A DNA stretch of 51,504 nt from an uncultured Gammaproteobacteria bacterium (GTDB taxonomy: Bacteria > Patescibacteriota > Microgenomatia > Daviesbacterales > UBA10151). The notes beneath the pieces are model-generated. The model was not told the origin of the DNA. It was given only the letters and a program-made list of their open reading frames with translations, and ran no database searches. Every line of letters begins with the position of its first letter. Within the stretch, counting starts at the first letter, position 1. Location of the stretch: NCBI GenBank assembly GCA_964393545.1, contig CAYMUB010000059.1, forward strand, positions 70,571 through 122,074, given 5' to 3'. Of this stretch, positions 5-50,418 are shown piece after piece. The position numbers were made by a program, and so were the translations under genes.

Positions 5-619
5 TTGCTGGTTCCCTTTTTATTTTTGAAGGCATCAACTGCTAAAGATAAAATAGTATCAATATTTGTTTCGGCAATTGTTTTTCTTTTAACAATACTC
101 CCTTTTATCAAATCTGCTTCTTTTAAGGAGTCGGCATTGGCTTCGGGTTTAACCACCAGAATTGTTTCCAACGGCTTAAATTTAGGTTTTGGTGAGATTT
201 TGATGCCAGCTATTATTTTACTTTCTATTCTATTTTTTTGGGGACTTAGTCAAACAAAAGTTGAACTCTGGCGTTTTTATTTAGTAGCTTTTATTTTCAT
301 ACTTATTTCTATTCATTTTCATTTGCAATGGTTTTTATGGATTCTTCCTTTTTTAGCAATTTCTTATGCTGCTGATTCTAATCAGGAGAAAAGATTAATG
401 ATGGCGTTTATTCTAATTGCTTTTGCTATACCTCTTCTTTATACAGATAAATTCATGACTGTAGGGTTGCTTAAGGTAGTTAGTCCTTTATATGAACTGC
501 TACCAACGCCAGCAGACATCTTAAGTAAAATCTACAAAGTAGAGATAATACAAGGAGTATTGCACAGTGCATTGTTTGGGTTGGGATTATTGTTAAGTTT
601 AATAATTATTAAAAGATGA
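5..619 (+). CDS. 5'-truncated GT-C-like integral membrane protein (GT87/ALG6-like C-terminal half)
   Basis: ORF runs in from the window edge. Multiple hydrophobic helices and FHLQWFLWILPFL resemble the GT87-type QW motif. Ends in an ATGA overlap with the next gene. Confidence 0.5.
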   Translation: MLVPFLFLKASTAKDKIVSIFVSAIVFLLTILPFIKSASFKESALASGLTTRIVSNGLNLGFGEILMPAIILLSILFFWGLSQTKVELWRFYLVAFIFILISIHFHLQWFLWILPFLAISYAADSNQEKRLMMAFILIAFAIPLLYTDKFMTVGLLKVVSPLYELLPTPADILSKIYKVEIIQGVLHSALFGLGLLLSLIIIKR

Positions 620-1254
620 AAAAAATTTACTTTTTGATAGTATTTATATTTATAACTCCTTTTTTATTGTCTTTCCTAATTAAAGAAGTCTACAATGATG
701 TTCAACCATCCTTGGAAGGAACACAGATAATTTTTAAAGGAGTAACTGCTTTGCAATCTTTTAGATCACAAATGGATAACCTGTCAGGTATAGGAATGAG
801 TATTAAAAACCCTTATTTTAGGAATAAAAAGAATATAACTTTTAGTATTCTTTCTGAAGATAAACAATTACTTAGGGAAATTACTCTCAATGGGATGAAT
901 ATTCCAGATGGAGATCTGATAAAAATTCCATTTGATATATTACCTAATTCAAAAAACAAAAAATACTTTTTATCTGTTTTTTCCAAAGATACAGAAAATA
1001 ATGAGGCTTTAGAAATCTTCTTAACTTCTAAGAAAACCTCCTGGGTAGGGGATTTTTATATAAATTCTGAAAAACAAGATTCGAACTTCTCATTTTTTAC
1101 TTACCATAAATCTTCCAACATATTAACTATTACTACAGAGATTTTTACTCAATTATTAAAAAGATTATTTGCAGATTTACCATTTGCTGTTTTTTATTTA
1201 GGTTTGCTAGGGGGATTAACATTTTACCTGCTACGTTTAAAAAAAGCTAATTAA
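616..1254 (+). CDS. Hypothetical membrane-anchored protein: N- and C-terminal TM helices flanking a soluble beta-rich extracytoplasmic domain
   Basis: 212 aa with hydrophobic termini. The central QSF..NLSGI..FSIL..LRE..IPDG..F..PNSKNKKYFL pattern resembles beta-sandwich domains appended to GT-C/YfhO-like proteins (from recall). Confidence 0.55.
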   Translation: MKKIYFLIVFIFITPFLLSFLIKEVYNDVQPSLEGTQIIFKGVTALQSFRSQMDNLSGIGMSIKNPYFRNKKNITFSILSEDKQLLREITLNGMNIPDGDLIKIPFDILPNSKNKKYFLSVFSKDTENNEALEIFLTSKKTSWVGDFYINSEKQDSNFSFFTYHKSSNILTITTEIFTQLLKRLFADLPFAVFYLGLLGGLTFYLLRLKKAN

Positions 1255-3211
1255 TTTTCCAGATTTCTATTTGCCCGTTTTCAAAAACTAGTGTTGAATT
1301 TATTAAAGGATAAGCAACTGGTTTTACTTTTTTTGGGAAATATACATAGGATATTTTATTATTTTTTAATTCACTCCATACTTTGTCTCTCTGGTTGTTT
1401 TCAAAAATAATTTTTTGAGTGTTTAGTCTTTCTTTATAGTTATATCCCATGATATCCACTTGTTCCAAGTCTGCTAAATATATTCTTCTTTGAGAGAAAG
1501 CAGCTACATAAGATGTATCAAACCAAGCCCAGATAAAAGGAGTAGCCATTTCCACACCACTATATTTATTAAACGGTGAAGTAAGCACAATGCTATTTTT
1601 ATCAGAATTCTCCCTCAAATAATTTAAAGCTTGGATTTCGTCAGGAGTAATCTTGGCAATAGGCGGTTTATGGTAAAAATCATACAACACCCCAATCTGG
1701 GTAGGTACTGAGAAGATAATAATTAATGTAATAAATAACCATCTTAAAAGGTTATTTTTGATTCTGTTTTGTAACCCTGATGTTGTTATAGCAGCATAAA
1801 CACCAAAAATAAGTAAGAAGTATTGTAAAAACTGGATAGTATTTTTTGCCACGCCTTTTTGTAAAAATAGTAAAGGTAAAATCAGAGAAGTTATGGCAAT
1901 AGAAAAAGATAACTGAAAGAATAAATTGTTTAATATTTTTTTGATAGATTTTGCTATAAAGATTAAGCCTAAAAATTTAGTCCCTAAATTTCCAAAGAAA
2001 AAGAGTAAGAATCCGGTTAATTCTATTTGGAAAACCCTTTTCCAGTTCCTTTCGGCAAAATAAGTTTGTCTTTTCAACTCTAAATCTATCCAGTCTAGTC
2101 TTGAATCTACCACGATCATTGTTCTGATAAACCACCAGGGTTCAAAGATTAAAAATGAAGTTGAATTGGCAGTATTTGGTAAATATAAAATAGCAGAAAG
2201 TAAGCTACTTAAAATAAATAAACAAAGCAGGTATATTTTTTTATCCTTGAATAGTTCGACTAATCCTACCAGCAGTAAACTTATTAAAACCACTACAGAG
2301 GCATATATTTTGAAAACAGCCAAAGATCCAATCACTACAATTAAAATTCCAGATAACCCCCAATTCTTTTTAGGAAAGAAACAAAGAAAGTAAATAATGG
2401 TTAATACTAAGATATCAGAAATAATCTGAGGCGGATTACCAATAGAACTTTGTATCTGGGTAGCCCAAAAAATACTTTCTCCGCCAATTACATGATTTTT
2501 AAAAAAAGTTACAAAATAGCCAAAGCTTCCAGCAAAGTAGACAAAAAAAGAAGACCAAAGACCTGTACTAAAAGAGTTATTTATTTTCCTTCCCAAAAGG
2601 AAGGCCATGGATCCCAAAAGGATAGAGTTCAAAAAAGGAAAAAACCTAAAGTACAAATCCAAACTAGAGAATTTAAAGTATTTACTAAATTGGGCCGGAG
2701 CTATATCAGAAAAGAAATGATAATTTACCAATCTTTCACCGGCAAAGATAGGGTTTTGCAGAGGATAGCCCTTTTTGATTTCCTCCATTAAAGCTATATG
2801 CCATGGTCCATCATGACCGTTAGAGCTATAAAAAATTAAGTCGTTATTAATCTTTAAGCCGCTTGGTGCCATAATTGCCATCTGTCCAAGTATCCCTATG
2901 GTAAATACTATAAGTAGCAGTAAAAGGTGTTTCTTGGAGGATATTTTGAAATTAATTCTTTGGAATTTAGTTTTTTTTAAGTAAACTAAGTTAATAAGCC
3001 CAATTATCGGCAATAATAATATAGAAATTTTGAATACTAATAAAATATATGAAAGGAGAGTAAATACAACAAAGCCAATAATAGTGCCTAATACTATTTT
3101 TTCTTTGAAGCCGAAATAAGTTTTACTATAATTTAGAATAAAGATTCCTGGTAAAGTAAAGCAGGCAGTAGAAACAATAAGAAATAGAATAAAGTAAATC
3201 AAAATTTCCAT
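1247..3211 (-). CDS. GT-C-like polytopic membrane glycosyltransferase, family unassigned
   Basis: 654 aa, many TM helices, an external loop with GHDGPWH..YPLQNP..NYHFFSD, and a C-terminal soluble domain (A..YLRENS..IVLT). Confidence 0.6.
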   Translation of the reverse strand: MEILIYFILFLIVSTACFTLPGIFILNYSKTYFGFKEKIVLGTIIGFVVFTLLSYILLVFKISILLLPIIGLINLVYLKKTKFQRINFKISSKKHLLLLLIVFTIGILGQMAIMAPSGLKINNDLIFYSSNGHDGPWHIALMEEIKKGYPLQNPIFAGERLVNYHFFSDIAPAQFSKYFKFSSLDLYFRFFPFLNSILLGSMAFLLGRKINNSFSTGLWSSFFVYFAGSFGYFVTFFKNHVIGGESIFWATQIQSSIGNPPQIISDILVLTIIYFLCFFPKKNWGLSGILIVVIGSLAVFKIYASVVVLISLLLVGLVELFKDKKIYLLCLFILSSLLSAILYLPNTANSTSFLIFEPWWFIRTMIVVDSRLDWIDLELKRQTYFAERNWKRVFQIELTGFLLFFFGNLGTKFLGLIFIAKSIKKILNNLFFQLSFSIAITSLILPLLFLQKGVAKNTIQFLQYFLLIFGVYAAITTSGLQNRIKNNLLRWLFITLIIIFSVPTQIGVLYDFYHKPPIAKITPDEIQALNYLRENSDKNSIVLTSPFNKYSGVEMATPFIWAWFDTSYVAAFSQRRIYLADLEQVDIMGYNYKERLNTQKIIFENNQRDKVWSELKNNKISYVYFPKKVKPVAYPLINSTLVFENGQIEIWKIN

Positions 3212-3261: not shown

Positions 3262-4962
3262 ATGAGTATCCGCCCAAAACAAATCTTACTAGTCCTGATT
3301 ATTCTTCTGGCATTGATCCTTCGGGTTTGGAGGCTTGATCTGGTTCCAATATCACTCTTTGGGGATGAACTGGATGTTGGGTATCAGGCATATTCTATTC
3401 TAAAAACAGGTAAAGACTATTCTGGTAATTTTTTCCCCCTTCATTTTAAATCTTTAGCCGAATGGAGAACACCTCTTTATCTATACTCATCTGTACCCAC
3501 AGTAGCGTTATTTGGAATTAACGCTTGGGGAGTAAGGCTGCCGGCAGCCATATTTGGAGTATTAGGAGTCTTAGCATTTTACTTGTTAGTAAAAGAACTG
3601 ACAAAGAATGAAAGTTTAGGTTTACTTTCTGCATTTTTACTTGCAGTATCCCCATGGCATCTGCATTATTCCAGAGCAGGCTTTGAAGTTACAGAAATGC
3701 TGTTTTTGTATATTCTAGGAGTATTTTTTTTGTTACTCAGTTTAAGGGGAAAGAATACCTTATGGTTGGCAGCTATTTTACTGGCTTTAACCCCCTGGGC
3801 TTATAATACAGCCAAACTGTTTCTTCCTCTAACTATTATTGTAGTTTTGATTATCTGGAGGGATAAATTTAAAGCGATTTCTAAACAAAGATTAATTTTG
3901 GCACTGATAGCCTTTTCCATATTCGCTGCTCCCTATACCTTCAATACTCTATTTGGGGGAGGAACGCAAAGAATACAAAGTATTTCAATATTTAATAATC
4001 CAACCATTATTCCGCAGATGGGTTTTGACCGTCTAAATGATATTAAAATGAGAAATGGAGTTACCTACTCAGTAAGCATTGTTGATAAATTATTTCATAA
4101 TCAAATAATCTCTTTTAGTGAGATTTTTTCCAGGAATTATTTTCAGGCTTTTTCAACCAATTTCCTTTTTACTGATGGAGATGTGCTTAATTTAAGACAA
4201 GCATCAGGCAGTGAATTCTATAAAATTGAGAGCATTTTTTTGCTACTGGGATTGTTTTTTCTCATAGTCATACAGCTTGATAAAAAAGTTAAAACTTTTC
4301 TTTTCTTTTGGCTTATTGTTTCACCAATTCCTTCAAGTCTGACAAAGGGAGGGGGAGATCATGCTACCAGGTTAATCCTAATGCTGCCTGTTCTTACTAT
4401 TTTGATAGCGTTTGGTATGTACTATAGTTATGTAAAAATAAACCAGAAATTTAAGAGTTTATCAATTATATTAATCTCAATGGGTTTATTTTTAAGTTTC
4501 CTCTATTATCAACACAATTATTGGATTCATTACCCTTGGGAGTCAGAAAGATGGTGGCAGGCAGGTTTTGAAAATAGTATTAAGCTTGCAGTTAAAGAGA
4601 GCTCAAACTATGAAAAAGTTATACTTAGCTCTGCCAACGAACCAGCCTTGGTATTTTTCTTAGGCTGGTCTATGTACCCACCTGAAGTTTTTCAGAAGGA
4701 ATATAGCTCATATGCATTAAATAAGGAGATCAAACCAACTTTGAGCCTTGGTAAATTTGAATTTCCTCCTGTTGGGCAAGGTTTAAGTCTTTACGAAATA
4801 GGTTCTAAACTGTCGAAGAAAGTTCTGTATGTAGCAACAGCAAAGGAAGTGGTGGTGGATCTTAACAAAGAACCGGAAAGATTGCCTAAAGATATCAGTC
4901 TTGTTAAAACAATTAATTATCCGTCAGGAGCGCCAGCTTTTTATTTTTTTACTAAACCTTAA
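3262..4962 (+). CDS. ArnT/PMT-like (GT39/GT83) GT-C glycosyltransferase, paralog 1
   Basis: P.SLFGDELDVGYQAYSILKTGKD first-loop DE motif; SPWHLHYSRAGFE; DHATR; WWQAG at the start of the C-terminal domain. Confidence 0.8.
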   Translation: MSIRPKQILLVLIILLALILRVWRLDLVPISLFGDELDVGYQAYSILKTGKDYSGNFFPLHFKSLAEWRTPLYLYSSVPTVALFGINAWGVRLPAAIFGVLGVLAFYLLVKELTKNESLGLLSAFLLAVSPWHLHYSRAGFEVTEMLFLYILGVFFLLLSLRGKNTLWLAAILLALTPWAYNTAKLFLPLTIIVVLIIWRDKFKAISKQRLILALIAFSIFAAPYTFNTLFGGGTQRIQSISIFNNPTIIPQMGFDRLNDIKMRNGVTYSVSIVDKLFHNQIISFSEIFSRNYFQAFSTNFLFTDGDVLNLRQASGSEFYKIESIFLLLGLFFLIVIQLDKKVKTFLFFWLIVSPIPSSLTKGGGDHATRLILMLPVLTILIAFGMYYSYVKINQKFKSLSIILISMGLFLSFLYYQHNYWIHYPWESERWWQAGFENSIKLAVKESSNYEKVILSSANEPALVFFLGWSMYPPEVFQKEYSSYALNKEIKPTLSLGKFEFPPVGQGLSLYEIGSKLSKKVLYVATAKEVVVDLNKEPERLPKDISLVKTINYPSGAPAFYFFTKP

Positions 4963-4963
4963 A

Positions 4964-6610
4964 ATGATTAAAAGATTCTTTAAAAAATTACCAATACTTT
5001 TGTTAATATTGTTAATCTCTTTTGTGTTAAGGATTGTCAATATTTCAGATAACCCCTCTGCTATGTATGGCGATGAGTTAACTATGTTGCTTGATGTGAG
5101 TTCCATACTTCATTCAGGTTTTGATACAACTGGGAAATTTCTGCCCTTAAATTTTACTATGGGTGGGGGTAGGCCTGTAGGATATGGTTATTTCTCACTC
5201 CCTTTTGTTGCTTTATTTGGCTTAAACGCCCTTAGCATTCGCCTGCTTTCAGTTCTATCAGGAGTAGGAATTGTCTTGCTGATTTACTTTTTGGGTAAAA
5301 GATTATTCTCAAAACAGATTGGTTTGCTCTCAGCTTTTTTTATTGCTATTTCTCCTTGGGATTTATCCATTAGTAGAGGAGGTTTTGAAAGTCATTTTGC
5401 CTTATTCCTGGGTTTGCTCATGGTGGTATCATTTTTACATGCAAATAAAAAAGCTTGGTTTTATATTATTTCTGCGTTAAGCCTTGGCCTGAGCATTAAT
5501 ACGTACTCTACGTATAAGTTTACTTTGCCAGTCTTTCTTCCAATATTACTTTGGTTTGGCAATTTTAAACAGATTCTGATGAATGTAAAAACAAGGGCTT
5601 ATCCATTATTTGGGGGATTAATCTTATTGTTATTTATGTTATTACTTTTTTTTCAGGTGTTGCTAAATAACAGCGAATCAAGATTCCTAAGTATAAATAT
5701 TTTTTCAGATAATGATATTAAAACTCAAATTGATCAAACAATAAGAGAACAAAATGAATTTGTCTTACAAAATAATAAACTTACTAAGTTATTGCATAAT
5801 AGATTCTGGGAGTATGGGTTAGTTTTTGGTAAAAACTATTTGAATAATTTTTCTCCCAGCTTCCTATTTTTGGAAGGTGATAAGAATCCAAGGCAGAATA
5901 TGACCGGATTGGGAGAGTTCTATCTAGTACAACTGGTTTTAATATTTTTTGGTATTGGATTTTTATTCAAAAATAGATATTCAAAGGAGATGTTATTATT
6001 AGTTACTTGGACGCTTATAGCTTCTATCCCAGCCTCTCTAATAAAAGATCCGCATGCGTTAAGAAGTTCTTTTATGTTACCTCCACTGATTATCTTTTCG
6101 GCTTTAGGTTTATATTCTTTGTGGAAATTAAAAAGATTATTTCTAATTAGAGTATTATTATTGGGAATAGTTTTTGGATTAATAATACAGTTTATCTTTA
6201 TTGCAGAAAATTTATATTTCATTTCCCCCAATAAATACTCACGTTTCTGGTCATATCCGGCAAGGCTTGCGACAGAAATGGCGCTTAAGAATCAAAAAGA
6301 GTATGAATATATCTTTATTTCTGATCGAATAGACAACATTGAATTTGCTTATTCAGTCTATGCTGGTATAGATTTGGATAATAAAAAAATCTCAAGAGTA
6401 CGTATTGGGGAATTTGAATTTAGGAAGCAGGACAATATTTATCTTGGACCGATACCAGATAGTGCTGCTCAAAAGTTTCTGGATGGTTTAAGCGGATCAA
6501 TAATGTATATTGGTCCAGTAAATGATGCAAAGTATTTGAAAGGCGGGTATAGCACTCTTTTAGGAAAAGATAAACAAGATGCTTTAGTTGTCAAAAGGAT
6601 AAATAAATAA
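4964..6610 (+). CDS. ArnT/PMT-like GT-C glycosyltransferase, paralog 2
   Basis: MYGDELTM; SPWDLSISRGGFES; DPHALRS. Start moved from the track's 4901 to ATG 4964, 1 nt after the upstream stop. Confidence 0.8.
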   Translation: MIKRFFKKLPILLLILLISFVLRIVNISDNPSAMYGDELTMLLDVSSILHSGFDTTGKFLPLNFTMGGGRPVGYGYFSLPFVALFGLNALSIRLLSVLSGVGIVLLIYFLGKRLFSKQIGLLSAFFIAISPWDLSISRGGFESHFALFLGLLMVVSFLHANKKAWFYIISALSLGLSINTYSTYKFTLPVFLPILLWFGNFKQILMNVKTRAYPLFGGLILLLFMLLLFFQVLLNNSESRFLSINIFSDNDIKTQIDQTIREQNEFVLQNNKLTKLLHNRFWEYGLVFGKNYLNNFSPSFLFLEGDKNPRQNMTGLGEFYLVQLVLIFFGIGFLFKNRYSKEMLLLVTWTLIASIPASLIKDPHALRSSFMLPPLIIFSALGLYSLWKLKRLFLIRVLLLGIVFGLIIQFIFIAENLYFISPNKYSRFWSYPARLATEMALKNQKEYEYIFISDRIDNIEFAYSVYAGIDLDNKKISRVRIGEFEFRKQDNIYLGPIPDSAAQKFLDGLSGSIMYIGPVNDAKYLKGGYSTLLGKDKQDALVVKRINK

Positions 6611-13203: not shown

Positions 13204-13206
13204 ATT

Positions 13207-33594: not shown

Positions 33595-34376
33595 AGAGTA
33601 AAGATTGGCAAGTACCAAAATTTAAAACTTTAGAGCTAAGACAAAAAAAATCCAAATATTGTGTTTGTATTCCAGTTTTAAATGAGGGAGAAAAAATTAA
33701 AAAAGAGTTGCAAAGATTGCTTCCTTATTCGAAGATGGCGGATATTATTATTGCAGATTGGGGAAGTACTGACGGCTCTAATGATCCAAAATTTTTAAAA
33801 AAGATGAATGTCAGATCGTTACTTACTTTAAAAGATAAAGGCAGACAAGGGACACAACTCAGAATGGCGTTTGCCTATGCCTTAAAACAAGGTTACGAAG
33901 GAATTATTCAAATAGATGGGAATAATAAAGATGGTGTAGAAGTGCTACCTGAATTTATCAGGGCTTTGGACGGTGGTTTTGACTATACGCAAGGCTCAAG
34001 ATTTATAAAAGGGGGAAAAGCAGTTAATACACCATTTATCAGATGGTTAGCAGTTAGATTTATAGGATCACCATTACTTAGTTTTGGAGCAAGATATTGG
34101 TATACAGATATAACAAATGGCTTTAGAGGGTATAGTAAAGAGTATTTAACTCATCCTGAGGTTCAACCTTTTAGAAATATTTTTGTAGGATATGAGTTAA
34201 ACATGTATCTTACAGTAAGAGCAAATCAGCTAGGTCTGAAAACTCAGGAAGTGCCTGTAGCCAGAATATATCCCCTAGGAAAAGTTCCGACAAAGATAAG
34301 CTTTTTCAAAGGTAATTTAACTTTTTTAATTGTAATAATAAAAACAGCCTTTGGTTTTTATACCCCTAAGCCTTAA
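33591..34376 (+). CDS. DPM1-like GT2 (putative polyprenol-phosphate sugar synthase)
   Basis: VCIPVLNEG; ADWGSTDGS; QIDGNNKD; QGSRF..GG; [10 protein letters not shown]; E.PV.R.YP. Confidence 0.78.
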
Positions 34377-35493: not shown

Positions 35494-35507
35494 AAGTATA
35501 CTTAGGT

Positions 35508-35517
35508 ATGATATCAT
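35508..35517. promoter_or_regulatory. Palindromic bidirectional extended -10 element
   Basis: ATGATATCAT is self-complementary and reads TG-A-TATCAT on both strands: 8 nt before ATG 35526 (+) and 14 nt before ATG 35493 (-). Confidence 0.55.
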
Positions 35518-35525
35518 TCTAAGAT

Positions 35526-41701: not shown

Positions 41702-43904
41702 TTGGAAGGATATTAAAAACCCAGATTCAGGAGGTGCTGAACTTGTTACCTTTGAATTTGCAAAAAGACTTGTTAACGAAGGTAATCAGGTTACTATATT
41801 TTGCAGAAAATTCTCCAACTCACAACCGGTTGAGCATATTGATGGAATAAGAATTCATAGAAAAGGAAATGCCTTAACTACTTACTTTCATGCATGGAGA
41901 TATTATAAGAAGTTAAATCCAAAACCCGATCTAGTCATAGATATGCTAAATACCATATTTTGGCAAACCCCCTTATATGTACCTAAGTCTAAAAGATTGG
42001 CTTATGTTAATCAATTAGCCAGAGAAGTGCTATTTTATGAATTGTGGCCACCGATATCATGGATAGCTTACCTTCTTGAGCACCTACAATTTTTAAGTTA
42101 TAAAACAACCCAGGTGTTATGTTTTTCAAACAGTACTAAGCAAGATCTGCTTAAAATAGGACTAAATGAATCTAATATACATATATTTCCCTTGGGAATT
42201 GACCCAAAAAAATATAGGCAGGGTCAAAAAACAGAATTTCCGCTTTTTTTATGTGTCAACAGACTGGTTAGGATGAAGCGGACGGATTTAGCTATCAAGG
42301 CTACTTGGACACTAAAACCTAAGTATCCCGGTATCAGACTGCATATTATGGGAAGGGGCTACGAGCAAGAAAGATTGCAGTCCCTGGTTCAAAAACTCAA
42401 TCTTCAAAAGAATGTATCTTTTGATTTTAATGGAAGTGACGGCGAGAAAATAAAACTTATGTCACAAGCTTGGGCATTAATTTTTCCCTCAGTTAAAGAA
42501 GGGTGGGGTATAACTGTAACAGAATCTGCTGCTTGTGGAGCTCCAACTATTGCAAGCAGAGTAAGTGGTTTGATTGATTCTGTACAAGAAGGCAAGAATG
42601 GAATATTTGTTTCAAAAAATCCCAGTCCAAAGGAGTTAGCACAAGCAATGGAGAGAATTATCACTGATGATAAATTAAGAAATAAGCTTAGTGAAGAATC
42701 GGTTAGGTTAAGTCAAAATTATTCTTGGGACGGGAGCTTCAAGGTATTTTATAGCCTAATTAAAAAGTTGGTGGGAGAAAAGAAAAAGAACATATTGATT
42801 TTATCCTGGAGAGGTCCTAAACACTATAATTCAGGAGGAGCAGAGATGTCAGTTCATGAGCATGCGAAAGCCTGGGTAAGGGCTGGTTTTAATGTCACAC
42901 TATTTACCTCAAAGGTTATTGGTTTAAAATCCAGCGAAATTATTGATGGTGTGACTATAATAAGGCAAGGAAAACAAGTATTTGGGGTTCAACTGCAGGC
43001 TTCTCTATATTATCTCAAAAATCGAGAATCGATTGATTTATTAGTTGATAATTTTCATGGTATCCCCTTTTTTACACCACTTTATGTATTTAAGCCTAAG
43101 ATAGCATTTATTCATGAGGTTGCAAAAGAAGTCTGGTTTTTAAATTATCTTTATTTCCCGCTAAACTATATATTTGGATTAATAGGATATATTTTAGAAC
43201 CGTTGGTCTTTCGGTTTATATATGGCAGGATTCCATTTATTACTGTATCCAATTCTACAAAACAAGACTTAATCGTATGGGGAATACCAGAGATGAATAT
43301 TAATGTAATTTATAACGGCGTAATTATACATAAGGTGGATCAAAATATATCTAAGAATAAAGTTAAGACCTTAATATTTTTGGGGGAAATTAGCATAGAT
43401 AAAGGGACGGAGGATGCAATTTATGTATTCAGTAAACTGGTTAAAGAAGATAAAATGGGAAAACTTTGGATTGTTGGTAAAGGAAGCCTACCTTATATAG
43501 AAAGAATGAAAAAACTCATCGACAAGTTAGGTTTGAAAGAAAAGGTTAAATTATGGGGCTTTGTTAGCGAGAAAAGTAAGTTTGAGCTTTTAAAAATGTC
43601 CCATATTTTGATTCATCCTTCTTTGCGTGAGGGCTGGGGTCAAGTTGTAATTGAAGCAGCAGCTATGGGGACTCCTACAGTTGGATACAATGTTGCAGGA
43701 CTTAAGGACTCTATTCTGGACGGAAAAACAGGTTTGCTTTCAGAAATTAATATTGATGATTTGACCAGGAAAATAGAAAAACTTGTATACGACAGGGAAT
43801 TATATAGGCAGATGCAAGTCAATTGTATTGAATGGTCAAAGCAATTTGTTTGGAAGAAGGCAACAGAGCAAAGCTTGAAACTAGTGAGACTTTCTCCGGA
43901 TTAG
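41682..43904 (+). CDS. Tandem GT4-GT4 fusion
   Basis: Both halves begin NILILSW(K/R)..SGGAE and carry EGWG..V.E (KEGWGITVTE; REGWGQVVIE). Confidence 0.85.
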   Translation: MNILILSWKDIKNPDSGGAELVTFEFAKRLVNEGNQVTIFCRKFSNSQPVEHIDGIRIHRKGNALTTYFHAWRYYKKLNPKPDLVIDMLNTIFWQTPLYVPKSKRLAYVNQLAREVLFYELWPPISWIAYLLEHLQFLSYKTTQVLCFSNSTKQDLLKIGLNESNIHIFPLGIDPKKYRQGQKTEFPLFLCVNRLVRMKRTDLAIKATWTLKPKYPGIRLHIMGRGYEQERLQSLVQKLNLQKNVSFDFNGSDGEKIKLMSQAWALIFPSVKEGWGITVTESAACGAPTIASRVSGLIDSVQEGKNGIFVSKNPSPKELAQAMERIITDDKLRNKLSEESVRLSQNYSWDGSFKVFYSLIKKLVGEKKKNILILSWRGPKHYNSGGAEMSVHEHAKAWVRAGFNVTLFTSKVIGLKSSEIIDGVTIIRQGKQVFGVQLQASLYYLKNRESIDLLVDNFHGIPFFTPLYVFKPKIAFIHEVAKEVWFLNYLYFPLNYIFGLIGYILEPLVFRFIYGRIPFITVSNSTKQDLIVWGIPEMNINVIYNGVIIHKVDQNISKNKVKTLIFLGEISIDKGTEDAIYVFSKLVKEDKMGKLWIVGKGSLPYIERMKKLIDKLGLKEKVKLWGFVSEKSKFELLKMSHILIHPSLREGWGQVVIEAAAMGTPTVGYNVAGLKDSILDGKTGLLSEINIDDLTRKIEKLVYDRELYRQMQVNCIEWSKQFVWKKATEQSLKLVRLSPD

Positions 43905-45614
43905 GTAGTTTCCGATCACTAATTCATCCACAGCTCCCCATAAAAGGTGTTCAATTGCTTCACTGGGAGAATGTACAATAGGTAAGCCATGTCTGTTAAA
44001 ACTGGTATTTAGTATCACAGGTACATCGGTCAGTTTGTAAAACTCCTCAATTACTTGGTGATATAGCGGCAAAACCTTTTTGTTAACTGTCTGTGGCCTT
44101 ACTGTTTTATCTATGTGGATTGCGGCAGATATAAATTTGGCCTTATTTGGTTTAATCCGATCTGCGGTAATCATAAAAGGGGACCAGCGATTATTTACTA
44201 AAAACTCATTTGATCTCTCCTGCAAGATAGCCGGAGCAAACGGCATGAACCAATCCCGCTGTTTTAACTTCTGATTAATTCTTTCTTTAATTGATTCATA
44301 TCTTGGATCTGCCAGAACACTTCTTTGTCCCAGTGCTCTTGGCCCCCATTCTCCTCTACCCTGGAACCAACCTAAAACTTTACCTTCTGTTAATTTTTTA
44401 GCAACGATTTTAGCCAAATTGGTCTTAAGCTGCAGGACTGTGATTTGATTTTTAAAACGCCTGATAGCTTGTTGAATCTCAACTGGCGTAAACTCGCATC
44501 CCAAATCTGCCCTGTTAAGCTGTTGTTTCTTTAGTACTCCACCCATCTTTTTGTATACGGCTAAAGCTGCTCCGACTGCAGTGCCGCTATCTCCCGGATT
44601 TGGATAAATGAATAAATCAGAAACAATTTTATTATCAAGAAGCCGCATATTCATCTTGACGTTTAGAAAAATCCCACCTGCTGCAGCTACTATACTAGTT
44701 TTATACTTCTTAACTAAATAAGTAAAAAATTTCTCGGATTCTTCTTCTAATATTCTTTGAGCGGCTGCAGCGACGTTTTCAGCCTTATGCTCTTTGATTA
44801 AGAGCTGTAAATACTTATAAGTAGATGTTGTTTTGAATAAGTCAGTTTTTGAAACACTCGTAATGTCCAGCCAATTGTTCCGGGGAAGCCAACTATCTTT
44901 AAGGAAGATTGGAAAAATCTCTCTTAACGCCTTATAACACTTAGATGGATTACCAAAGGAGGCCAGTCCCATGGTTTTACCTTCCCCGTCATTTAGCTTA
45001 AATCCCAGTGCAATCGTGACCGCGCCATAATATAGTGACAGGGATGAATACATTGGTATTTCCTCCAACTTTTCTAAATTATCATCCAGGGCTCTATAAA
45101 TAATTCCACACAAAGGTTTGCCGGAAATGTCTATACCATATCCATCCCAAGCTACTACTAAACAATCTTTAAAACCAGAGTTGCAGTAGGCAGATTCAGC
45201 GTGAGCCAGGTGATGTGAAACACAAATTAGCTTATCTTTGGGCAGACCAGCTTTAATGTAGGAAAGTTCCTTTGAGGTTGTCCCAAGCCTTAATAAAGTA
45301 AACGGTAATCTTTTTACAAACCAAGTAAAAAACTTAAAATACCCACAATATTTAATTCCTTCAAGATAAGCAATCAGGCATGGAAATAGTTTTATTGGGG
45401 GTATAGCTGAAGCAAAATAATCAATTTGAGATAAGTTTAATTTGGAAAATTTTAAAGCATGTTTAATGGTATCCAAAGGAAAGCTCTGGTCGTGTTTTAA
45501 TCTAGATATCCTTTCTTGTGCTTCTGCAAAAACTATCTCTCCGTCAACAAGTAATGCTGCAGAATTATCATGAGCAACACCGCCTAAATGATCTGTTAAT
45601 CCAATAATTTTCAT
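43881..45614 (-). CDS. O-carbamoyltransferase, NodU/CmcH/TobZ family
   Basis: HD.SAALL.DG; ER.SR.KH; HHLAHA; DGYG; EGKTMGLA; GG.FLN; GDSGTA.GAA; WFQGR.EWGPRALG.RS; PFAP; LNTSFN.HG.P. Confidence 0.9.
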   Translation of the reverse strand: MKIIGLTDHLGGVAHDNSAALLVDGEIVFAEAQERISRLKHDQSFPLDTIKHALKFSKLNLSQIDYFASAIPPIKLFPCLIAYLEGIKYCGYFKFFTWFVKRLPFTLLRLGTTSKELSYIKAGLPKDKLICVSHHLAHAESAYCNSGFKDCLVVAWDGYGIDISGKPLCGIIYRALDDNLEKLEEIPMYSSLSLYYGAVTIALGFKLNDGEGKTMGLASFGNPSKCYKALREIFPIFLKDSWLPRNNWLDITSVSKTDLFKTTSTYKYLQLLIKEHKAENVAAAAQRILEEESEKFFTYLVKKYKTSIVAAAGGIFLNVKMNMRLLDNKIVSDLFIYPNPGDSGTAVGAALAVYKKMGGVLKKQQLNRADLGCEFTPVEIQQAIRRFKNQITVLQLKTNLAKIVAKKLTEGKVLGWFQGRGEWGPRALGQRSVLADPRYESIKERINQKLKQRDWFMPFAPAILQERSNEFLVNNRWSPFMITADRIKPNKAKFISAAIHIDKTVRPQTVNKKVLPLYHQVIEEFYKLTDVPVILNTSFNRHGLPIVHSPSEAIEHLLWGAVDELVIGNYLIRRKSH

Positions 45615-47128
45615 AAATTTTCTATTTGATAAACCTGTATATCGCCAACGTCTTTTAATAAATGGTTTTTAGGTATTTTTAGCTCCAGAGCAGTAACGTA
45701 ACTTTTTTTCAAAATTAATAAATTCAGATTATATTTTTTTGCCAGTTTCTTGATTGACGTTCTAAGTATAGGAAAAACCTCTTGTAACTTCAGTAATCCC
45801 TTCATCTCTATATCTACTAAAGCATCAACTTTAGTATTATACAAAAAGATTAAGTTCATAGCGTGGGGAACACAGATAATTCTGGGTTTAAATTTTAAGT
45901 GATTAAGATAGGAAAAAACTTCCGGAAGCTCCGAAGTCAAGGATCTATTTTTATCAGTAATAACACCTTTCCACTGGGCATATACAGTCAGTAACACATT
46001 AATTAGGAATATTGAAATATAGATGATAATAATCTCAATTTTGTACTGGGTATTAACGAAAGCTGAAAATGTTAAAGCTGCCAGTATTGAAGTTGGGACT
46101 AGAGCCATTTCTAAATAACGCTGTCCTTCTCCGATCGGAATTAAATATTTCACTGAAAGAACAATTGTGGAGATAATATAAAAGAAAACCACCCATAAAC
46201 TCATTTTTAAAAATAAAGGATTATCAAGAGGAATAATACTTAATTTTGCATATTTATCCATAAAAAAAGCAAAAGGAGCAAGTAACCAAATGTTTGTTGC
46301 AATAAGTGAGAGGGGAGTAAAGGTAGAAAGTAGATAATAAATGAAACCAACAAAATCCATCTTATGGATTTTGTTGTCGGAAAAGTTTCCTCTAATTTGG
46401 TGAGCGAATCGAAACTTATAATGTAGCATCCAAAAATATATTATTGATAAGTGCCCCTTTAAAACTCTCAAGTAGTAACCACGACTAATCAGGATTGCTG
46501 TTAATAAAGATAAAAAAAAGTTAATAAGATATATTAAATCTTTGTCAAAAATAGAAAAAAATATACTAATAAACAAAAGTGCCTGTACTGGGAAGCGGTG
46601 AGAAAAAAATATTAAGGTTGTAAAGAGATACCCTATTACAAGATAAATTAAAGTATGTGTTTGTTGATACATAAGTATTGGGTAAAAGGCTAAAGTAAAG
46701 TTTAAATAACCTAAGGATCTGGGGGTTAAGTAACTGTTTTCTAAAGCTGCAATCGGGGTAGAAAAATAAATCATTTGTGCAATTAGGGCAATTTCTAATC
46801 TATTAGTTAATTGGAGAGTAATAAAAAAGACTAAATAATTTTGGATACAATCAAATATAGGTGCAATAAAGCCCTGAATTTCGAGTAATGTTTTTTTGGG
46901 AATAAAAGATAAAATCCAGGGAAATACAGGAGGATAGTCAAAATATCCTTCTATAATAAATCCACTGCTTACTATACCTTTTGGGATATGATGGTGATTT
47001 TTTCTAATAATATCTGCTTCAATCATCCTTTTCCAAACATCAATTCCAAAATATCGATTGAATATCCTGGGGTATATTTGAAAAAAGTAACTGATAATCG
47101 GGACAATAAGTCCAATTAGGAATTGCAT
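45611..47128 (-). CDS. GT-C-like polytopic membrane protein, family unassigned
   Basis: First loop with Asp (GIDVW) and DYPP; many TM helices; GEGQRY; soluble C-terminal domain. ATGA-coupled to the carbamoyltransferase. Confidence 0.55.
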   Translation of the reverse strand: MQFLIGLIVPIISYFFQIYPRIFNRYFGIDVWKRMIEADIIRKNHHHIPKGIVSSGFIIEGYFDYPPVFPWILSFIPKKTLLEIQGFIAPIFDCIQNYLVFFITLQLTNRLEIALIAQMIYFSTPIAALENSYLTPRSLGYLNFTLAFYPILMYQQTHTLIYLVIGYLFTTLIFFSHRFPVQALLFISIFFSIFDKDLIYLINFFLSLLTAILISRGYYLRVLKGHLSIIYFWMLHYKFRFAHQIRGNFSDNKIHKMDFVGFIYYLLSTFTPLSLIATNIWLLAPFAFFMDKYAKLSIIPLDNPLFLKMSLWVVFFYIISTIVLSVKYLIPIGEGQRYLEMALVPTSILAALTFSAFVNTQYKIEIIIIYISIFLINVLLTVYAQWKGVITDKNRSLTSELPEVFSYLNHLKFKPRIICVPHAMNLIFLYNTKVDALVDIEMKGLLKLQEVFPILRTSIKKLAKKYNLNLLILKKSYVTALELKIPKNHLLKDVGDIQVYQIENL

Positions 47129-47191: not shown

Positions 47192-47854
47192 ATGAAAAGT
47201 GTAAAGAAAATTGTGATTTTAGGCGCGGGAGGAAACTCCAGGGATATTGTGGATATCTTACATGATATTAACCGATTTCAAGGTACTACTTATGAATGTG
47301 TTGGTTTTTTGGATGATGACAAGGCATTATGGGGGAAAAAACTTATCGGAGAAAAAGTTTTAGGTCCTATTGAAAAGGCCAGTGATTTTCCAGACTGTTT
47401 TTTTGTAAATGGTGTTTATTCTGTAATTAATTTTTTTAATAATGAAAATGTTATCCAAAAAGCAAAGATACCTTTATTAAGATATATAACTGTCATCCAT
47501 CCTTCAGCACACATTTCTAAAACTGCTCGAATAGATAAAGGTAGTGTTCTAATGCGTAATGTAACCATAATGTCCGACGTCGTCATAGGAAAACACGTTA
47601 ATATTCATCCAGGAGCAGTAATAAGTCATGGCACCCAAATAGGTGATTATTCGTTTATTGCCAATACGGCATCAATAGGAGGGTACGTAAAAATAAGCAA
47701 CTCTTGTTTTATTGGGTCGAATAGCTCTTTAAGAGATCGTATCACAATAGGCAGCTACAGTATTATAGGAATTGGTAGTACGGTTGTAGAAGATATTCCG
47801 GGTAATGGTGTATATATTGGCAGTCCAACAAGATTCCTTAGAAAATCCCGATAG
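47192..47854 (+). CDS. NeuD/PglD-like sugar acetyltransferase (hexapeptide left-handed beta-helix)
   Basis: ILGAGG; GFLDD; IHPSA.IS..A.I..G; hexapeptide repeats; IG.GS.V..D.P..Y.G.P.R. Confidence 0.85.
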   Translation: MKSVKKIVILGAGGNSRDIVDILHDINRFQGTTYECVGFLDDDKALWGKKLIGEKVLGPIEKASDFPDCFFVNGVYSVINFFNNENVIQKAKIPLLRYITVIHPSAHISKTARIDKGSVLMRNVTIMSDVVIGKHVNIHPGAVISHGTQIGDYSFIANTASIGGYVKISNSCFIGSNSSLRDRITIGSYSIIGIGSTVVEDIPGNGVYIGSPTRFLRKSR

Positions 47855-49044
47855 TGAAAAAAGAATTTCAATTTCATATTATTTCAATGTCCACCTATGG
47901 GGTTGGTTTATCAGGTGGCGATCGAATATTCATTGAGCTTTCAAAAAGATTTTCTAAAAAATACCCGGTTTTTGTTTATGGATGGGAAGAGGGATTCAAT
48001 ATTTGCAAGAGAGAGGGATTAGACAATGTTAAATACATTTTATGGTCTGCAAAATCATTTGCCAAATTAGGATTTTTCATTAATTACTTTGCAAGAGTTT
48101 TTATTGGAATATTTAAAGCTTTTTTATTAAAAGTGGAAAACGCTCCAACAACAATAATTTATTCAGCTTCGGAATTCTGGCAAGATAGCTTACCGGCTGT
48201 TATTTTAAAATTAAGGCATCCTAAAATAAAATGGGTTGCCGCCTGGTATATGAGTGCACCAAATCCTTTTAGGGGATTTGAAGAAAAGGGACAATTAAGA
48301 CTGCTTCCTGATATAAAAGCTTTAGCTTATTGGGTTGTCCAGAAACCGATAAAACCATTGATGCAAAAGCTTTCGGAACTGGTTTTTGTTACTAGTGAGC
48401 CGGATAAATTGCAATTCCCTAAATTGAATAATTTAAATCGAATAATGGTGATTAAGGGGGGCGTTGATTTAGACAAGGTTGCCTTATTTCAAAAAACATC
48501 TAGTAGTCTGCCTAAAATATATGATTGTGTTTTTCAGGGGAGATTCCATCCGCAAAAAGGGGTGATCGAACTTATTGATATATGGAAGAAGGTTTTAGTA
48601 AAAAAACCTGGTGTCAAGCTTGCGATGATTGGTGATGGACCGCTCATGAATGATGTACGATTAAAGATTAAAGATTTAAGATTAGAAAAGCATATTAAAT
48701 TATTCGGTTATGTTTTTGATGGGCCGGAAAAATACAGAATTTTTTCGCAAAGCAGGATTATAGTACACCCTGCCATATATGATAGTGGAGGAATGGCTGC
48801 TGCAGAGGCTATGGCTTTTGGCTTGCCTGGCATAGCTTTTGACTTGGAAGCTCTTAAAACTTACTACCCAAAAGGAATGATAAAAATTCCTATTGGTAAC
48901 CTTGAGGTTTTTAGCAAGACAATAGAACAGCTTTTAACTGATAAAAAACTTTACCTGAGAATTCAGAAAGAGGCGGCTGATCTTGTTTACAATTATTGGG
49001 GTTGGGACTTATTGGTTAAAAGGATATTGCATAAGTTAAAATAA
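47854..49044 (+). CDS. GT4 glycosyltransferase
   Basis: GTG start overlapping the upstream TAG; SGGDRIF; GGVD; GRFHPQKG; IGDG; PAIYDSGGMAAAEAMAFG (DX7E variant). Confidence 0.78.
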   Translation: MKKEFQFHIISMSTYGVGLSGGDRIFIELSKRFSKKYPVFVYGWEEGFNICKREGLDNVKYILWSAKSFAKLGFFINYFARVFIGIFKAFLLKVENAPTTIIYSASEFWQDSLPAVILKLRHPKIKWVAAWYMSAPNPFRGFEEKGQLRLLPDIKALAYWVVQKPIKPLMQKLSELVFVTSEPDKLQFPKLNNLNRIMVIKGGVDLDKVALFQKTSSSLPKIYDCVFQGRFHPQKGVIELIDIWKKVLVKKPGVKLAMIGDGPLMNDVRLKIKDLRLEKHIKLFGYVFDGPEKYRIFSQSRIIVHPAIYDSGGMAAAEAMAFGLPGIAFDLEALKTYYPKGMIKIPIGNLEVFSKTIEQLLTDKKLYLRIQKEAADLVYNYWGWDLLVKRILHKLK

Positions 49045-49046
49045 TT

Positions 49047-50418
49047 ATGAATAGATTATCACCTTTTCTTACACTGCTCATAATAGTATCGGCTATTCAC
49101 TTTTTTTTATTGAAGCCTGTTTGGGAAAATGGTTTAGGGCCAGATGACTGGGGCTTGCTTTATTCATACAAGTCCTTAGTTGGTAATAATAACCCACTTT
49201 TACAAATAGGTAAAGTCTGGCATATCAGAGGGATGTATACTACATATCAGGTTTATTATATTGGTCTGCTGGAGAAAACATTTGGATTAAATTACTTAGC
49301 ATTTCAAACCATAAATATTCTGTTTAAAATAATAGCCACATTATCTGTTTATTTTCTAGTTGATACCCTATTTAAAAAAAAATATCTGGCTTTTCTGACA
49401 ACCATACTTTTTGCAATAAGCTATACTTCGACTGGTACTTTTAAATTCGTAGTACAAGGAGCAGATTATTTAGCTCTGTCCTCGATGAATGTTTTTTTTA
49501 TAACCTACTACTACTCAACAAAGCGTTTCAGATACTCAATACTCTTGCCACCATTATTATTTGTATCCTTTCTCCTATCTCCCCCGAGAGTATATCCACT
49601 ACTCTTTTTTGTACCAATTGTAGAGATATGCCTGATATTTTTTTCAAAGAATAGATTTGCATCAATTGACAGGGGACTCTGCAGACTTCTATTATTATTT
49701 GCACCCCTTCTCGCATTAGCGTTATTAGATAGAGGTGCTGTTAATACTCACTTAGTTTATCTTGGATACTTGTTTCAGAGATTAAGTGAAGGTAAATGGC
49801 ATCTTATTCTGAATTCACTATCAGGACTTGGTATTTACTTTATGCCATTTAATGTGTTCCTATTTCTTTTTGGCAATCAGGGCACAAGTTTTTCCCAATA
49901 TTTTATATCCACTCTTCCTAGATATATATTATTTCTTTTTCCGGTATCAGTGGTTTTTTCTATATTAATATCTAAACACCCAATAGCTTTCTTTAAAAAA
50001 CTTTTTATTGCTAATCTAGCTACTATAGTAATCTTTTTTTCTAATAAATCATAAGACTTTAGATTATGATTACCTTGTCTTAACAGTTCAGTTATTCGGA
50101 GCTTTTATTTTGGAAGCTGCAATATTTGCATGGTTGGAATGGAAAAGTAGCTCTCAAAGATCAAACAGCTTGTTATTACCAATCTGGTTGGGAGCAGGAT
50201 CTTCATTTATATTTCTATTTTTTACTTGGATAATTGCTTACAGCCAGGTTTATAAAGGAATTCATAACTATTTGATGATTCCTTCTATGGGTTTGAGCTT
50301 ATTTCTTGCAGCGATTCTTTTATTATTGACCCAGAATACTCCACGATTTACTTGGGTGATAAGTAGCTCAATAAGAATTTTCTATAGGTTATTATGTGCT
50401 GAAATGCAAAGAAGCGTA
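49047..50418 (+). pseudogene. Frameshifted, truncated GT-C-like membrane glycosyltransferase
   Basis: First-loop DD motif (GPDDWG). The frame stops at 50054, but removing one T from T7 (50034-50040) joins it to the open frame 50041-50418 (LINHKTLDYDYLVL..EAAIFAWLEW..NYLMIP). No C-terminal soluble domain before the IS30 boundary. Confidence 0.7.

Follow-up and report, generated by a model that had tools for sequence, protein, structure and literature searches.

The window, that is, the whole stretch of 51,504 nucleotides that was analysed, contains 40 open reading frames of at least 100 aa, including one IS30 transposase (g40). As g40 is this transposase and g38 and g39 are pieces of one broken gene, the host genes number 38. 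The sequence-only reading had proposed that half of them encode GT-C-like proteins, and the combined Pfam, profile, hhalign, PDB and Foldseek evidence bears this out: 19 of the 38, or 55% of host bases, encode GT-C-type membrane proteins, among which at least seven GT-C families are represented. The Pfam families it had named for checking were all found (PMT_2, Mannosyl_trans2, GT87, DUF3367/AftD and PTPS_related), and each of the fifteen first-loop acidic motifs it had listed is present, with the acidic residue conserved in the respective gene's family. These fifteen comprise eight core paralogs and seven members of other families, namely a YfhO-like, a PIG-M/ALG6-like, a PIG-V-like and an AftD-like protein and three for which there is no Pfam model. 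Intact genes with the catalytic loop amount to 14 of the 19; the other five are two loop-less (g06 and g09), one fragment-like (g13), one disrupted (g38) and one cut by the window edge (g01). Transporters or Wzy polymerases, which the sequence-only reading had named as contrary to its claim, were ruled out for this set by profile matches, PDB matches and two predicted GT-C folds, and no Pfam scan of the window genes returned a Wzy/WaaL family. In hhalign comparisons with the core profile, the families of g17, g03, g15, g32 and g38 reached 92-97% probability, while the Wzx protein g24, used as negative control, stayed at or below 0.6% against every GT-C family.

The core of the array consists of eight ArnT/PMT_2-type paralogs that pass the Pfam PMT_2 gathering score, six of which also pass the PMT model, and in which D35-E36 of the first loop is invariant. 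Their joint profile finds ArnT (5ezm, E=1.4e-5) as its best PDB sequence match, and Pfam detected no MIR or TPR acceptor-binding domain in any of them. They are g04 (3262..4962, +; PMT_2 37 bits, PMT 26.6 bits, both above cutoff), g05 (4901..6610, +; PMT_2 41.9 bits, STT3 34.5 bits), g07 (7764..9398, +; PMT 32.1 bits, PMT_2 28.3 bits), g08 (9414..11072, -; PMT_2 47.7 bits, PMT 44.1 bits), g14 (15764..17464, +; PMT_2 42.3 bits) and the tandem g18, g19 and g20 (21238..26085, +; PMT_2 46.9, 47.3 and 56.3 bits). The N-terminal extension of g05 is missing in all other core paralogs, and its start is probably the ATG near 4964. The best conserved ortholog is that of g18, with 55-71% identity in Daviesbacteria and Woesebacteria. 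With 42% identity between the two, g08 is an ancient, inverted duplicate of g07.

Three shorter proteins are related to this core. The 385-aa product of g06 (6610..7767, +; core profile E=3e-20), whose stop overlaps the start of g07, lacks the C-terminal domain and the whole first external loop with its DE motif, and its family shows a gap of about 40 residues exactly at the DE loop in the hhalign alignment. Directly upstream of g08 lies g09 (11075..12223, -; core profile E=3e-17; PMT_2 23.5 bits, below cutoff), which likewise lacks the whole first loop and, at 30% identity, is a duplicate of g06, so that the ancient inverted duplication covers g06-g07 and g09-g08. The third, g13 (15082..15759, +; core profile E=8e-7; hhalign 96.6%), is a 225-aa membrane protein whose homology is limited to the GT-C transmembrane core (profile columns 284-401), the catalytic loop being absent; five other loci keep it as a separate open reading frame of about 225 aa.

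The remaining GT-C genes are more diverse. Since the window begins inside g01 (5..619, +), this gene lacks its N-terminus and represents the C-terminal half of a GT87/PIG-M-like protein, aligning with residues 196-401 of homologs of about 400 aa; one homolog (L027:3236-4456) passes Pfam GT87 with 30.3 bits (cutoff 25), and the g01 and g15 families match each other at 99.7% in hhalign. The product of g15 itself (17461..18807, +) is PIG-M/ALG6-like, with D29 at least 90% conserved, and its profile finds GPI mannosyltransferase 1 (23gf, E=3.8e-10) and ALG6 (6snh, E=4.3e-8) in the PDB. On the opposite strand, g17 (19512..21164, -) is of the YfhO/PTPS_related type: its own PTPS_related score (19 bits) is below cutoff, its relatives in other loci exceed both the YfhO and the PTPS_related cutoffs, and its family matches the core at 96.9% and the g32 family at 99%, with D31 at least 90% conserved. 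The PIG-V-like g23 (27907..29067, +) has homologs that carry PF04188 and bear the record name 'mannosyltransferase family protein', an invariant N-F-D65-G-E-H motif (F64-D65), and an AlphaFold model (pLDDT 85) whose top 40 Foldseek matches are all GT-C proteins, ALG9, ALG12 and ALG3 among them; the PF04188 homologs and these matches ruled out a Wzy polymerase. The 743-aa g32 (39470..41701, +) is AftD-like, its distant homologs carrying PF11847. Against the core, its profile scores 92-94% across 264 columns or more, and E38 aligns with the core DE; this residue is at least 90% conserved, D39 not being conserved.

Three further families have no Pfam model. The 654-aa g03 (1247..3211, -) matched nothing in Pfam, NCBIfam or PDB sequences, and its family profile reaches 95.1% against the core over 428 columns; in its conserved H133-D134 pair, D134 is invariant in 19 sequences and H133 at least 90% conserved. 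The 505-aa g35 (45611..47128, -), 47-60% identical across Levybacteria, Roizmanbacteria and other Patescibacteria, has an invariant D30; sequence searches give no link to the core, and the Foldseek top 24 of its AlphaFold model (pLDDT 89) are STT3, DPY19, AglB, AftA, ArnT and PglB. Despite this STT3-like predicted fold, the WWD motif is absent. Finally, g38 and g39 (49047..50292, +) form a single disrupted gene from a family of 610-645 aa, whose profile matches the core at 94.6% and in which the Asp of the g38 DDW is at least 90% conserved. Homology stops at residue 416 of 609, tblastn placing a frame change at a T-run near 50035-50040, and the gene is interrupted by an IS30-family insertion sequence (50421..51494, -) with 22-nt inverted repeats (50421-50442 and 51473-51494) and the transposase g40 (NF033563, 225.7 bits, cutoff 80).

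Next to the array lie genes for a Wzx flippase, for further glycosyltransferases (GT2 and GT4) and for sugar modification. One of them, g16 (18804..19538, +), encodes a Dpm1/AglJ/PpgS-like GT2 and candidate polyprenyl-phosphate-sugar synthase, whose NCBIfam matches all fall below the curated cutoffs (AglJ E=1.7e-21, PpgS E=6.6e-16, dolichyl-P-hexose transferase E=4e-12) and whose sole PDB match is dolichol-P-mannose synthase 5mlz. According to Pfam, the soluble GT2 paralogs g10 and g11 and the GT4 g12 are cytoplasmic glycosyltransferases (12304..15080, +; Glycos_transf_2, Glycos_transf_1), and further glycosyltransferases are g21 (GT2, paralogous to g10/g11) and g22 (GT4; together 26085..27910, +). 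The Wzx-type flippase g24 (29055..30347, +; Polysacc_synt_3 75.6 bits, Polysacc_synt 72.2 bits) and g32 enclose a set of cytoplasmic genes on mixed strands, g25 to g31 (30262..39473; Pfam, NCBIfam), comprising the GT2 genes g25, g27 and g29, of which g25 and g27 are Dpm1/PpgS-like, an epimerase-methyltransferase-GT2 fusion (g26), an epimerase/dehydratase (g28, -), a double GT4 (g30) and a methyltransferase (g31). They are followed by a double GT4 (g33, +) and a NodU-like carbamoyltransferase (g34, -; together 41682..45614, by Pfam; NCBIfam NodU E=1e-38, below cutoff), and by a NeuD/PglB-family sugar acetyltransferase (g36; TIGR03570 174 bits, cutoff 160.8) and a GT4 (g37, Pfam; 47192..49044, +). 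The 212-aa non-GT-C protein g02 (616..1254, +) has hydrophobic segments at both termini and no match in Pfam or NCBIfam; its homologs adjoin g03-like genes in loci L009 and L028. The window holds no GtrA/GtcA-type flippase, either as a Pfam match or as a free small open reading frame, and Pfam found no initiating phosphoglycosyltransferase or lipid-anchor genes in it.

The nearest orthologs come from Candidatus Daviesbacteria (71% for g18, 73% for g23), and the source is a CPR Microgenomates bacterium near this group, in agreement with the earlier suggestion of a CPR organism; the lineage's complete genomes among those with g18 orthologs measure about 0.8 Mb. In 80 related Microgenomates/Patescibacteria loci of about 21 kb each, we counted a median of 8 and a maximum of 12 GT-C genes, in a conserved order (g17, g17, g01, g03, about four core genes, g23), and the array is therefore a trait of the clade and not peculiar to this locus. 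Such arrays are thus routine; the sequence-only reading would have been refuted by arrays both routine and functionally assigned in the lineage, and our literature search found no paper describing them or giving them a role. Its interpretation is partly supported: the array is real, but with the intact catalytic set given above and clade-wide rather than specific to this locus. Paralogs within the window share 27-42% identity and orthologs from other genomes 50-71%, which together with the conserved order speaks for a fixed pathway whose enzymes are specialised, and not for recent amplification. The number of core paralogs ranges from 1 to 8 per locus, and part of the array therefore differs between genomes.

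In general terms, the array genes very probably encode extracytoplasmic glycosylation enzymes that depend on polyprenyl-phosphate sugars. With moderate confidence, we further propose that the window belongs to a conserved locus for an envelope glycan and serves the stepwise extracytoplasmic assembly or decoration of a glycoconjugate from such donors; the specific notion that the GT-C enzymes act in series, as in an assembly line, is put forward somewhat more tentatively. Here, the Dpm1-like g16, g25 and g27 would place single sugars on polyprenyl phosphate at the cytoplasmic face, while GT2, GT4 and sugar-modifying enzymes (epimerase/dehydratases and methyl-, carbamoyl- and acetyltransferases) would make a lipid-linked primer that g24 could then flip across the membrane. 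Outside, each GT-C enzyme would add one sugar in one linkage, and jointly they might lengthen a conserved envelope glycoconjugate and introduce its branches one step at a time, by analogy with mycobacterial lipomannan, LAM and arabinogalactan assembly or with the ALG/PIG series of the ER lumen. The three short relatives g06, g09 and g13 would probably serve as non-catalytic partners of the full-length enzyme adjoining each of them. In favour of the proposal stand the GT-C identity of the array, its conserved first-loop acidic residues and its position beside the flippase and the genes for GT2, GT4 and sugar-modifying enzymes. About three synthase candidates face 15 transferases, implying a small number of donors for numerous linkages or acceptors. 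Against the proposal count the lack of a GtrA-type flippase, an initiating phosphoglycosyltransferase, Wzy/WaaL and lipid-anchor genes in the window, the Dpm1-like assignments below curated NCBIfam cutoffs, and the varying core paralog number.

The acceptor may be a protein, a lipoglycan or a wall polymer. Where studied, GT87/PimE-like, PIG-M/ALG6-like, PIG-V-like and AftD-like enzymes act on glycan or glycolipid acceptors; as the PMT_2 clan also includes protein O-mannosyltransferases, however, protein acceptors are equally possible for the eight PMT_2-type paralogs. Each of these, and possibly also the members of families that lack a Pfam model, might transfer sugar from polyprenyl phosphate directly to Ser/Thr on a separate group of proteins that are secreted or lie at the surface, such as pilins, S-layer-like proteins or Ser/Thr-rich disordered regions, by analogy with eukaryotic PMT1-6, TMTC1-4 and TMEM260, actinobacterial Pmt and streptococcal GT-C systems. 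The PMT_2 and PMT scores and the DE motif, which is of the PMT type, argue for this, as do the known streptococcal GT-C enzymes glycosylating Ser/Thr-rich regions (PMC12041528). We nevertheless regard it as rather unlikely, given the missing MIR and TPR domains, the presence of families known from glycan or glycolipid acceptors, and a locus that encodes no candidate acceptor protein.

It is less probable still that the enzymes decorate a polymer of the wall or membrane made beforehand, either a polysaccharide or a teichoic-acid-like one, with GT2 enzymes supplying C55-P-sugars and each GT-C adding an extracellular side-branch sugar, on the model of CsbB/GtcA/YfhO, GtlA/GtlB, GtrABC and ArnC/ArnT. 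The YfhO-like g17, the Dpm1/PgfS/PpgS-like GT2 genes lying among the GT-C genes and the match of the core to the ArnT structure are in keeping with such systems, but the window has neither a GtrA/GtcA-type flippase nor teichoic-acid synthesis genes. Moreover, 15 decorating enzymes would be needed for one polymer, a number for which we know of no precedent. Very improbable, finally, is a set of alternative, variably present or switchable decorators that diversifies the surface glycan between strains or helps to evade phage. While the differing core paralog number, the frameshift and IS30 insertion in g38 and the ancient inverted duplication would fit it, a homopolymer frameshift was seen only once, and most paralogs have one-to-one orthologs, 50-71% identical and in conserved order, in Daviesbacteria and Woesebacteria, the opposite of rapid turnover.

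Among known systems, the mycobacterial and corynebacterial GT-C set (PimE, MptA-C, EmbA-C, AftA-D and Pmt), which makes lipomannan, LAM and arabinogalactan, likewise draws on numerous GT-C enzymes from several families, every one of which forms one extracytoplasmic linkage from polyprenyl-phosphate sugars, as we infer here; GT87-like and AftD-like members occur in the window, and Foldseek matches include AftA, Emb and PimE. Unlike that set, the present one is a single tandem, largely co-directional array dominated by ArnT/PMT_2-type paralogs in a lineage with complete genomes of about 0.8 Mb, with no Emb-type protein bearing carbohydrate-binding modules and no arabinose-donor pathway seen. Three-component systems (GtrA/B/C, CsbB/GtcA/YfhO, ArnC/ArnE-F/ArnT), reviewed in PMC8035078 and PMC11127046, resemble the locus in its YfhO-like and ArnT-like members and in the synthase candidate g16 adjoining the GT-C genes g15 and g17; the locus differs in encoding no GtrA-type flippase and in having about 15 transferases for about 3 synthase candidates, where those systems pair them one for one. 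Actinobacterial Ppm1/Pmt and streptococcal Pgf or GtrB-GT-C systems share the combination of a Dpm1-like GT2 with DE-bearing GT-C enzymes of the PMT_2/PMT type, whereas here the MIR domain is lacking and at least eight paralogs stand against one or two. In the ER lumen of eukaryotes, ALG3/6/8/9/10/12 and PIG-M/V/B/Z act sequentially using Dol-P-Man or Dol-P-Glc. The locus recalls this series in the matches of the g15 family to PIG-M and ALG6, in the PIG-V family model carried by g23 homologs and in the resemblance of the g23 model to ALG enzymes; it departs from it in giving no sign of a GPI or N-glycan product and in its setting, the bacterial plasma membrane.

With a GC content of about 32%, the window carries 40 ORFs with a minimum length of 100 aa (g01 to g40, numbered along it), densely packed and predominantly on the plus strand. 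Removing the IS30 transposase g40 and counting g38 and g39 as one broken gene leaves 38 host genes, the number reached by the earlier sequence-only reading, and 19 of them are GT-C-related, in agreement with its observation that half of the host genes are of this kind. Of the host bases, 55% fall in these 19 genes, which also take up 83% of the initial 26 kb. GT-C enzymes are polytopic, spanning the membrane with some 8-13 helices or more, and transfer a sugar from a polyprenyl-phosphate-linked donor at the outer face of the membrane. The full-length candidates of the window are polytopic membrane proteins, with 4-12 segments in a hydropathy scan, and their classification as GT-C is supported by profile matches as well as by the predicted folds of g35 and g23. 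Fourteen of the 19 genes are intact and retain the catalytic loop, the remainder being g38, which bears the loop and is broken, two loop-less genes (g06 and g09), one gene reduced to the core (g13) and one truncated at the window edge (g01). A conserved acidic residue in the first external loop was present in 15 genes, and all 15 positions listed from the sequence alone were recovered, each conserved within its own family; the loop is deleted in g06 and g09, the residue was likewise not found in g13, and the N-terminus of g01 lies beyond the window start.

The largest group is a core family of eight ArnT/PMT_2-type proteins (g04, g05, g07, g08, g14, g18, g19 and g20; 531-569 aa), all of which score above the Pfam PMT_2 cutoff of 26.1 bits (28-56 bits), while six of the eight also pass the PMT model and g05 also passes the STT3 model. 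They are mutually 25-42% identical, and their alignment has 17 invariant columns, two of which are the Asp-Glu pair of the first loop after TM1 (D35-E36 in g04). Searched against the PDB, the eight-sequence profile matched ArnT (5ezm, E=1.4e-5) and also STT3. Protein O-mannosyltransferases proper (GT39, PMT) carry MIR domains in a large external loop, and since no MIR domain was detected in any paralog by Pfam scan (E<=0.01), we regard the core paralogs as ArnT/PMT_2-type and not as GT39 proper.

The other families were compared through profiles built from homologs in databases or in related loci, and except for g35 and g23 all GT-C genes were linked in this way with probabilities of 92-100%, whereas the Wzx flippase g24, used as the hhalign control, scored at most 0.6% against every family. 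Relatives of g17 (conserved D31) pass the YfhO and PTPS_related cutoffs, and this family matched the core at 96.9% (hhalign). The g15 profile (D29) retrieved GPI mannosyltransferase 1 (E=3.8e-10) and ALG6 (E=4.3e-8) from the PDB, and its family matched at 99.7% that of g01, the C-terminal half of a protein of about 400 aa cut by the window start; one of the two g01 homologs tested passed GT87. Distant homologs of g32 carry PF11847 (AftD type), and its profile matched the core at 92-94% and the g17 family at 99%; E38 is conserved in this family and D39 is not. Two further families are without Pfam or NCBIfam matches, namely g03 (D134), which also had no match in a PDB sequence search and the profile of which aligned with the core at 95.1% over 428 columns, and g38 (Asp of a DDW motif), for which ten full-length homologs likewise gave no match and the profile of which reached 94.6% against the core. 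Sequence-profile searches of the PDB with the g32, g03 and g38 families returned only noise.

The homologs of g38 measure 610-645 aa, and in the window this gene (49047-51494) is broken twice, by a frameshift in a T-run near 50035-50040, after which homology runs on in another frame to 50292, so that g38 and g39 belong to a single gene read in two frames, and by an IS30-family element (50421-51494). The element has inverted repeats of 22 nt at its ends (50421-50442 and 51473-51494) and encodes an intact transposase, g40 (NF033563, 225.7 bits).

For g35 (D30) and g23 (D65), assignment to GT-C draws on predicted structures. g35 had no Pfam, NCBIfam or PDB sequence match and could not be linked to the core by sequence (hhalign 0.6%); it shares 47-60% identity with its homologs in Levybacteria, Roizmanbacteria and other Patescibacteria. 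Its AlphaFold model (pLDDT 89) is an all-helical membrane bundle, and the top 24 Foldseek hits were all GT-C (STT3, DPY19, AglB, AftA, ArnT and PglB), a result on which a transporter or another fold was rejected. Oligosaccharyltransferases are marked by a WWDxG motif, and an STT3/AglB/PglB-type identity for g35 was rejected given the lack of a Pfam match and the occurrence of WWD in none of 34 family members; only the general fold fits. The g23 model is likewise an all-helical membrane bundle (pLDDT 85), with a Foldseek top 40 made up entirely of GT-C proteins (STT3, AglB, PglB, ALG9/12/3, ArnT, PIG-U, Emb and PimE). Across these two sets of hits the probability was 0.47-1.00, and 1.00 for the best 24-27, so both proteins are predicted to have the GT-C fold. 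Homologs of g23 at 60-80% identity carry PF04188 (PIG-V type), several of them annotated as 'mannosyltransferase family protein' in Daviesbacteria. Because of these homologs and the GT-C-only Foldseek result, we dropped the reading of g23 as a Wzy polymerase beside the Wzx flippase.

That the DNA comes from a CPR organism, which had been called probable, is borne out by the best matches of g18 (71%) and g23 (73%), both in Candidatus Daviesbacteria, with further matches in Woesebacteria, Blackburnbacteria, Microgenomates and Patescibacteria. Many of the nearest genomes (those of loci L002-L081) are titled 'uncultured Gammaproteobacteria bacterium' and have genes 60-71% identical to Daviesbacteria or Woesebacteria orthologs; such titles look like unreliable placeholders of bulk-submitted MAGs. 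Related loci were located with a four-sequence core alignment, the eight-sequence alignment A1 being too divergent for the scan. In 80 such loci, none longer than 21.7 kb, a median of 5 core genes was found with only the core profile, and a median of 8 GT-C genes (maximum 12) with all family profiles together. Their order recurs: a pair of YfhO-like genes comes first, then one GT87-like and one g03-like gene, then several core paralogs and after them a PIG-V-like gene. Compared with this order, the array of the window probably continues upstream of its start. The array itself is confirmed, and it is a clade-wide feature, not a peculiarity of this locus. Orthologs elsewhere are 50-71% identical to most paralogs of the window, versus 27-42% for any paralog within it, which indicates that the duplications are old and that the copies have been maintained separately. 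Recent amplification or an assembly artefact is therefore ruled out, the core paralogs being only 25-42% identical to each other and closer to orthologs elsewhere.

Three shorter genes derive from the same stock. g06 (385 aa) and g09 (382 aa) match the core profile (E=3e-20 and 3e-17) and fall below the PMT_2 cutoff of 26.1 (22 and 23.5 bits); aligned at the family level, they have lost about 40 residues in a clean deletion that removes exactly the DE loop, and the C-terminal domain is also absent. g06 lies directly upstream of g07 on the plus strand and g09 directly upstream of g08 on the minus strand, the stop codon of the first gene overlapping the start codon of the second or lying next to it. 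Judging from their sequences, the two pairs (window 6610-12223) go back to a unit of two genes that was anciently duplicated in inverted orientation, g07 and g08 now being 42% identical and g06 and g09 30%. Pairing of a short with a long GT-C gene was also seen in L007, L020 and L036, and probably in L011. g13 (225 aa, window 15082-15759) is homologous only to the GT-C transmembrane core (profile columns 284-401). Since a separate ORF of about 225 aa recurs in five other loci (L002:2086-2775, L006:2005-2685, L017:7607-8293, L026:2212-2874 and L034:6063-6779), g13 is no isolated remnant; it lies just upstream of a full-length GT-C gene in the window, and likewise at least in L002 and L006.

The remaining genes include seven stand-alone GT2 enzymes, an unusual 815-aa fusion of epimerase/dehydratase, SAM methyltransferase and GT2 (g26, window 31147-33594), GT4 enzymes, among them two equally unusual proteins each with two complete GT4 in tandem (g30, 36374-38641; g33, 41682-43904), epimerase/dehydratase, methyltransferase, NodU-like carbamoyltransferase and NeuD/PglB-family acetyltransferase genes, and the Wzx flippase g24 (Polysacc_synt_3, 75.6 bits; Polysacc_synt, 72.2 bits). 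g16, g25 and g27 resemble polyprenyl-phosphate-sugar synthases of the AglJ, PpgS, PgfS and Dpm1 types at scores below the curated NCBIfam cutoffs, and the sole PDB match of g16 is dolichol-phosphate-mannose synthase (DPMS; 5mlz, E=2e-4). No family match to Wzy_C, O-antigen ligase (WaaL) or an initiating phosphoglycosyltransferase was found in the window with Pfam and NCBIfam. The epimerase/dehydratase g28 (34366-35517, minus strand) matches Pfam in two stretches, 15-142 and 183-354, separated by some 40 inserted residues that give a weak zinc-ribbon-like match. g02 (616-1254, 212 aa), without a Pfam or NCBIfam match, is hydrophobic at its N- and C-termini and conserved beside g03-like genes in L009 and L028. 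In the stretch 43881-47854 the carbamoyltransferase g34 overlaps the stop of g35, and the acetyltransferase g36 lies upstream and divergent; this arrangement is a hint that the product may contain amino-sugars with carbamoyl or acetyl groups.

The analysis shows to which families and predicted fold the proteins belong and that the catalytic acid is conserved. Donors, acceptors and products are inferred, and here we favour a conserved envelope glycoconjugate that would be assembled or branched step by step outside the cytoplasm. This is because several of the families represented here use glycan or glycolipid acceptors in the cases that have been studied, candidate synthases are few and transferases many, the orthologs are fixed and syntenic, and a Wzx-type pathway adjoins the array. 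Parallel glycosylation of proteins, in which the PMT_2-type paralogs would act as protein O-glycosyltransferases, is a serious rival. Surface variation is less likely, as is three-component decoration of a wall polymer; no GtrA/GtcA-type flippase was matched by Pfam in the window, and all ORFs of 50-100 aa lie inside larger genes.

Beyond the favoured glycoconjugate assembly, we hold it rather improbable, though worth stating, that the Microgenomates envelope glycoconjugate is lineage-defining and made almost wholly outside the membrane by an ER-lumen-like line of at least 15 specialised GT-C enzymes, including three Pfam-less families (g03, g35 and g38 types), with the dead derivatives g06, g09 and g13 as obligatory partners of the adjoining full-length enzyme. 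The role of such partners might be, for instance, to bring in the polyprenyl-phosphate sugar or to flip it, standing in for the missing GtrA-type flippase. CPR bacteria have very small genomes, and the complete Microgenomates genomes among our matches measure about 0.8 Mb; despite this, more than half of a conserved block of about 50 kb is given over to glycosyltransferases predicted to act outside the membrane. As this GT-C-rich block is kept in a small genome, its product is probably central to the surface, perhaps to host attachment.

Our full-text literature search, with incomplete journal coverage, turned up no account of GT-C arrays from CPR bacteria. Kantor et al. 2013 (PMC3812714) report abundant glycosyltransferases in candidate-phyla genomes in general and nothing beyond, and CPR homologs are not discussed by Lombard 2016 (PMC4973528). 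The three Pfam-less families and the paired loop-less paralogs may serve as targets for structural and biochemical studies of acceptor choice and donor supply in GT-C enzymes. The enzymes of this locus belong to a known superfamily, to which it adds a high gene density in a small genome, three Pfam-less families and loop-less putative partner genes.
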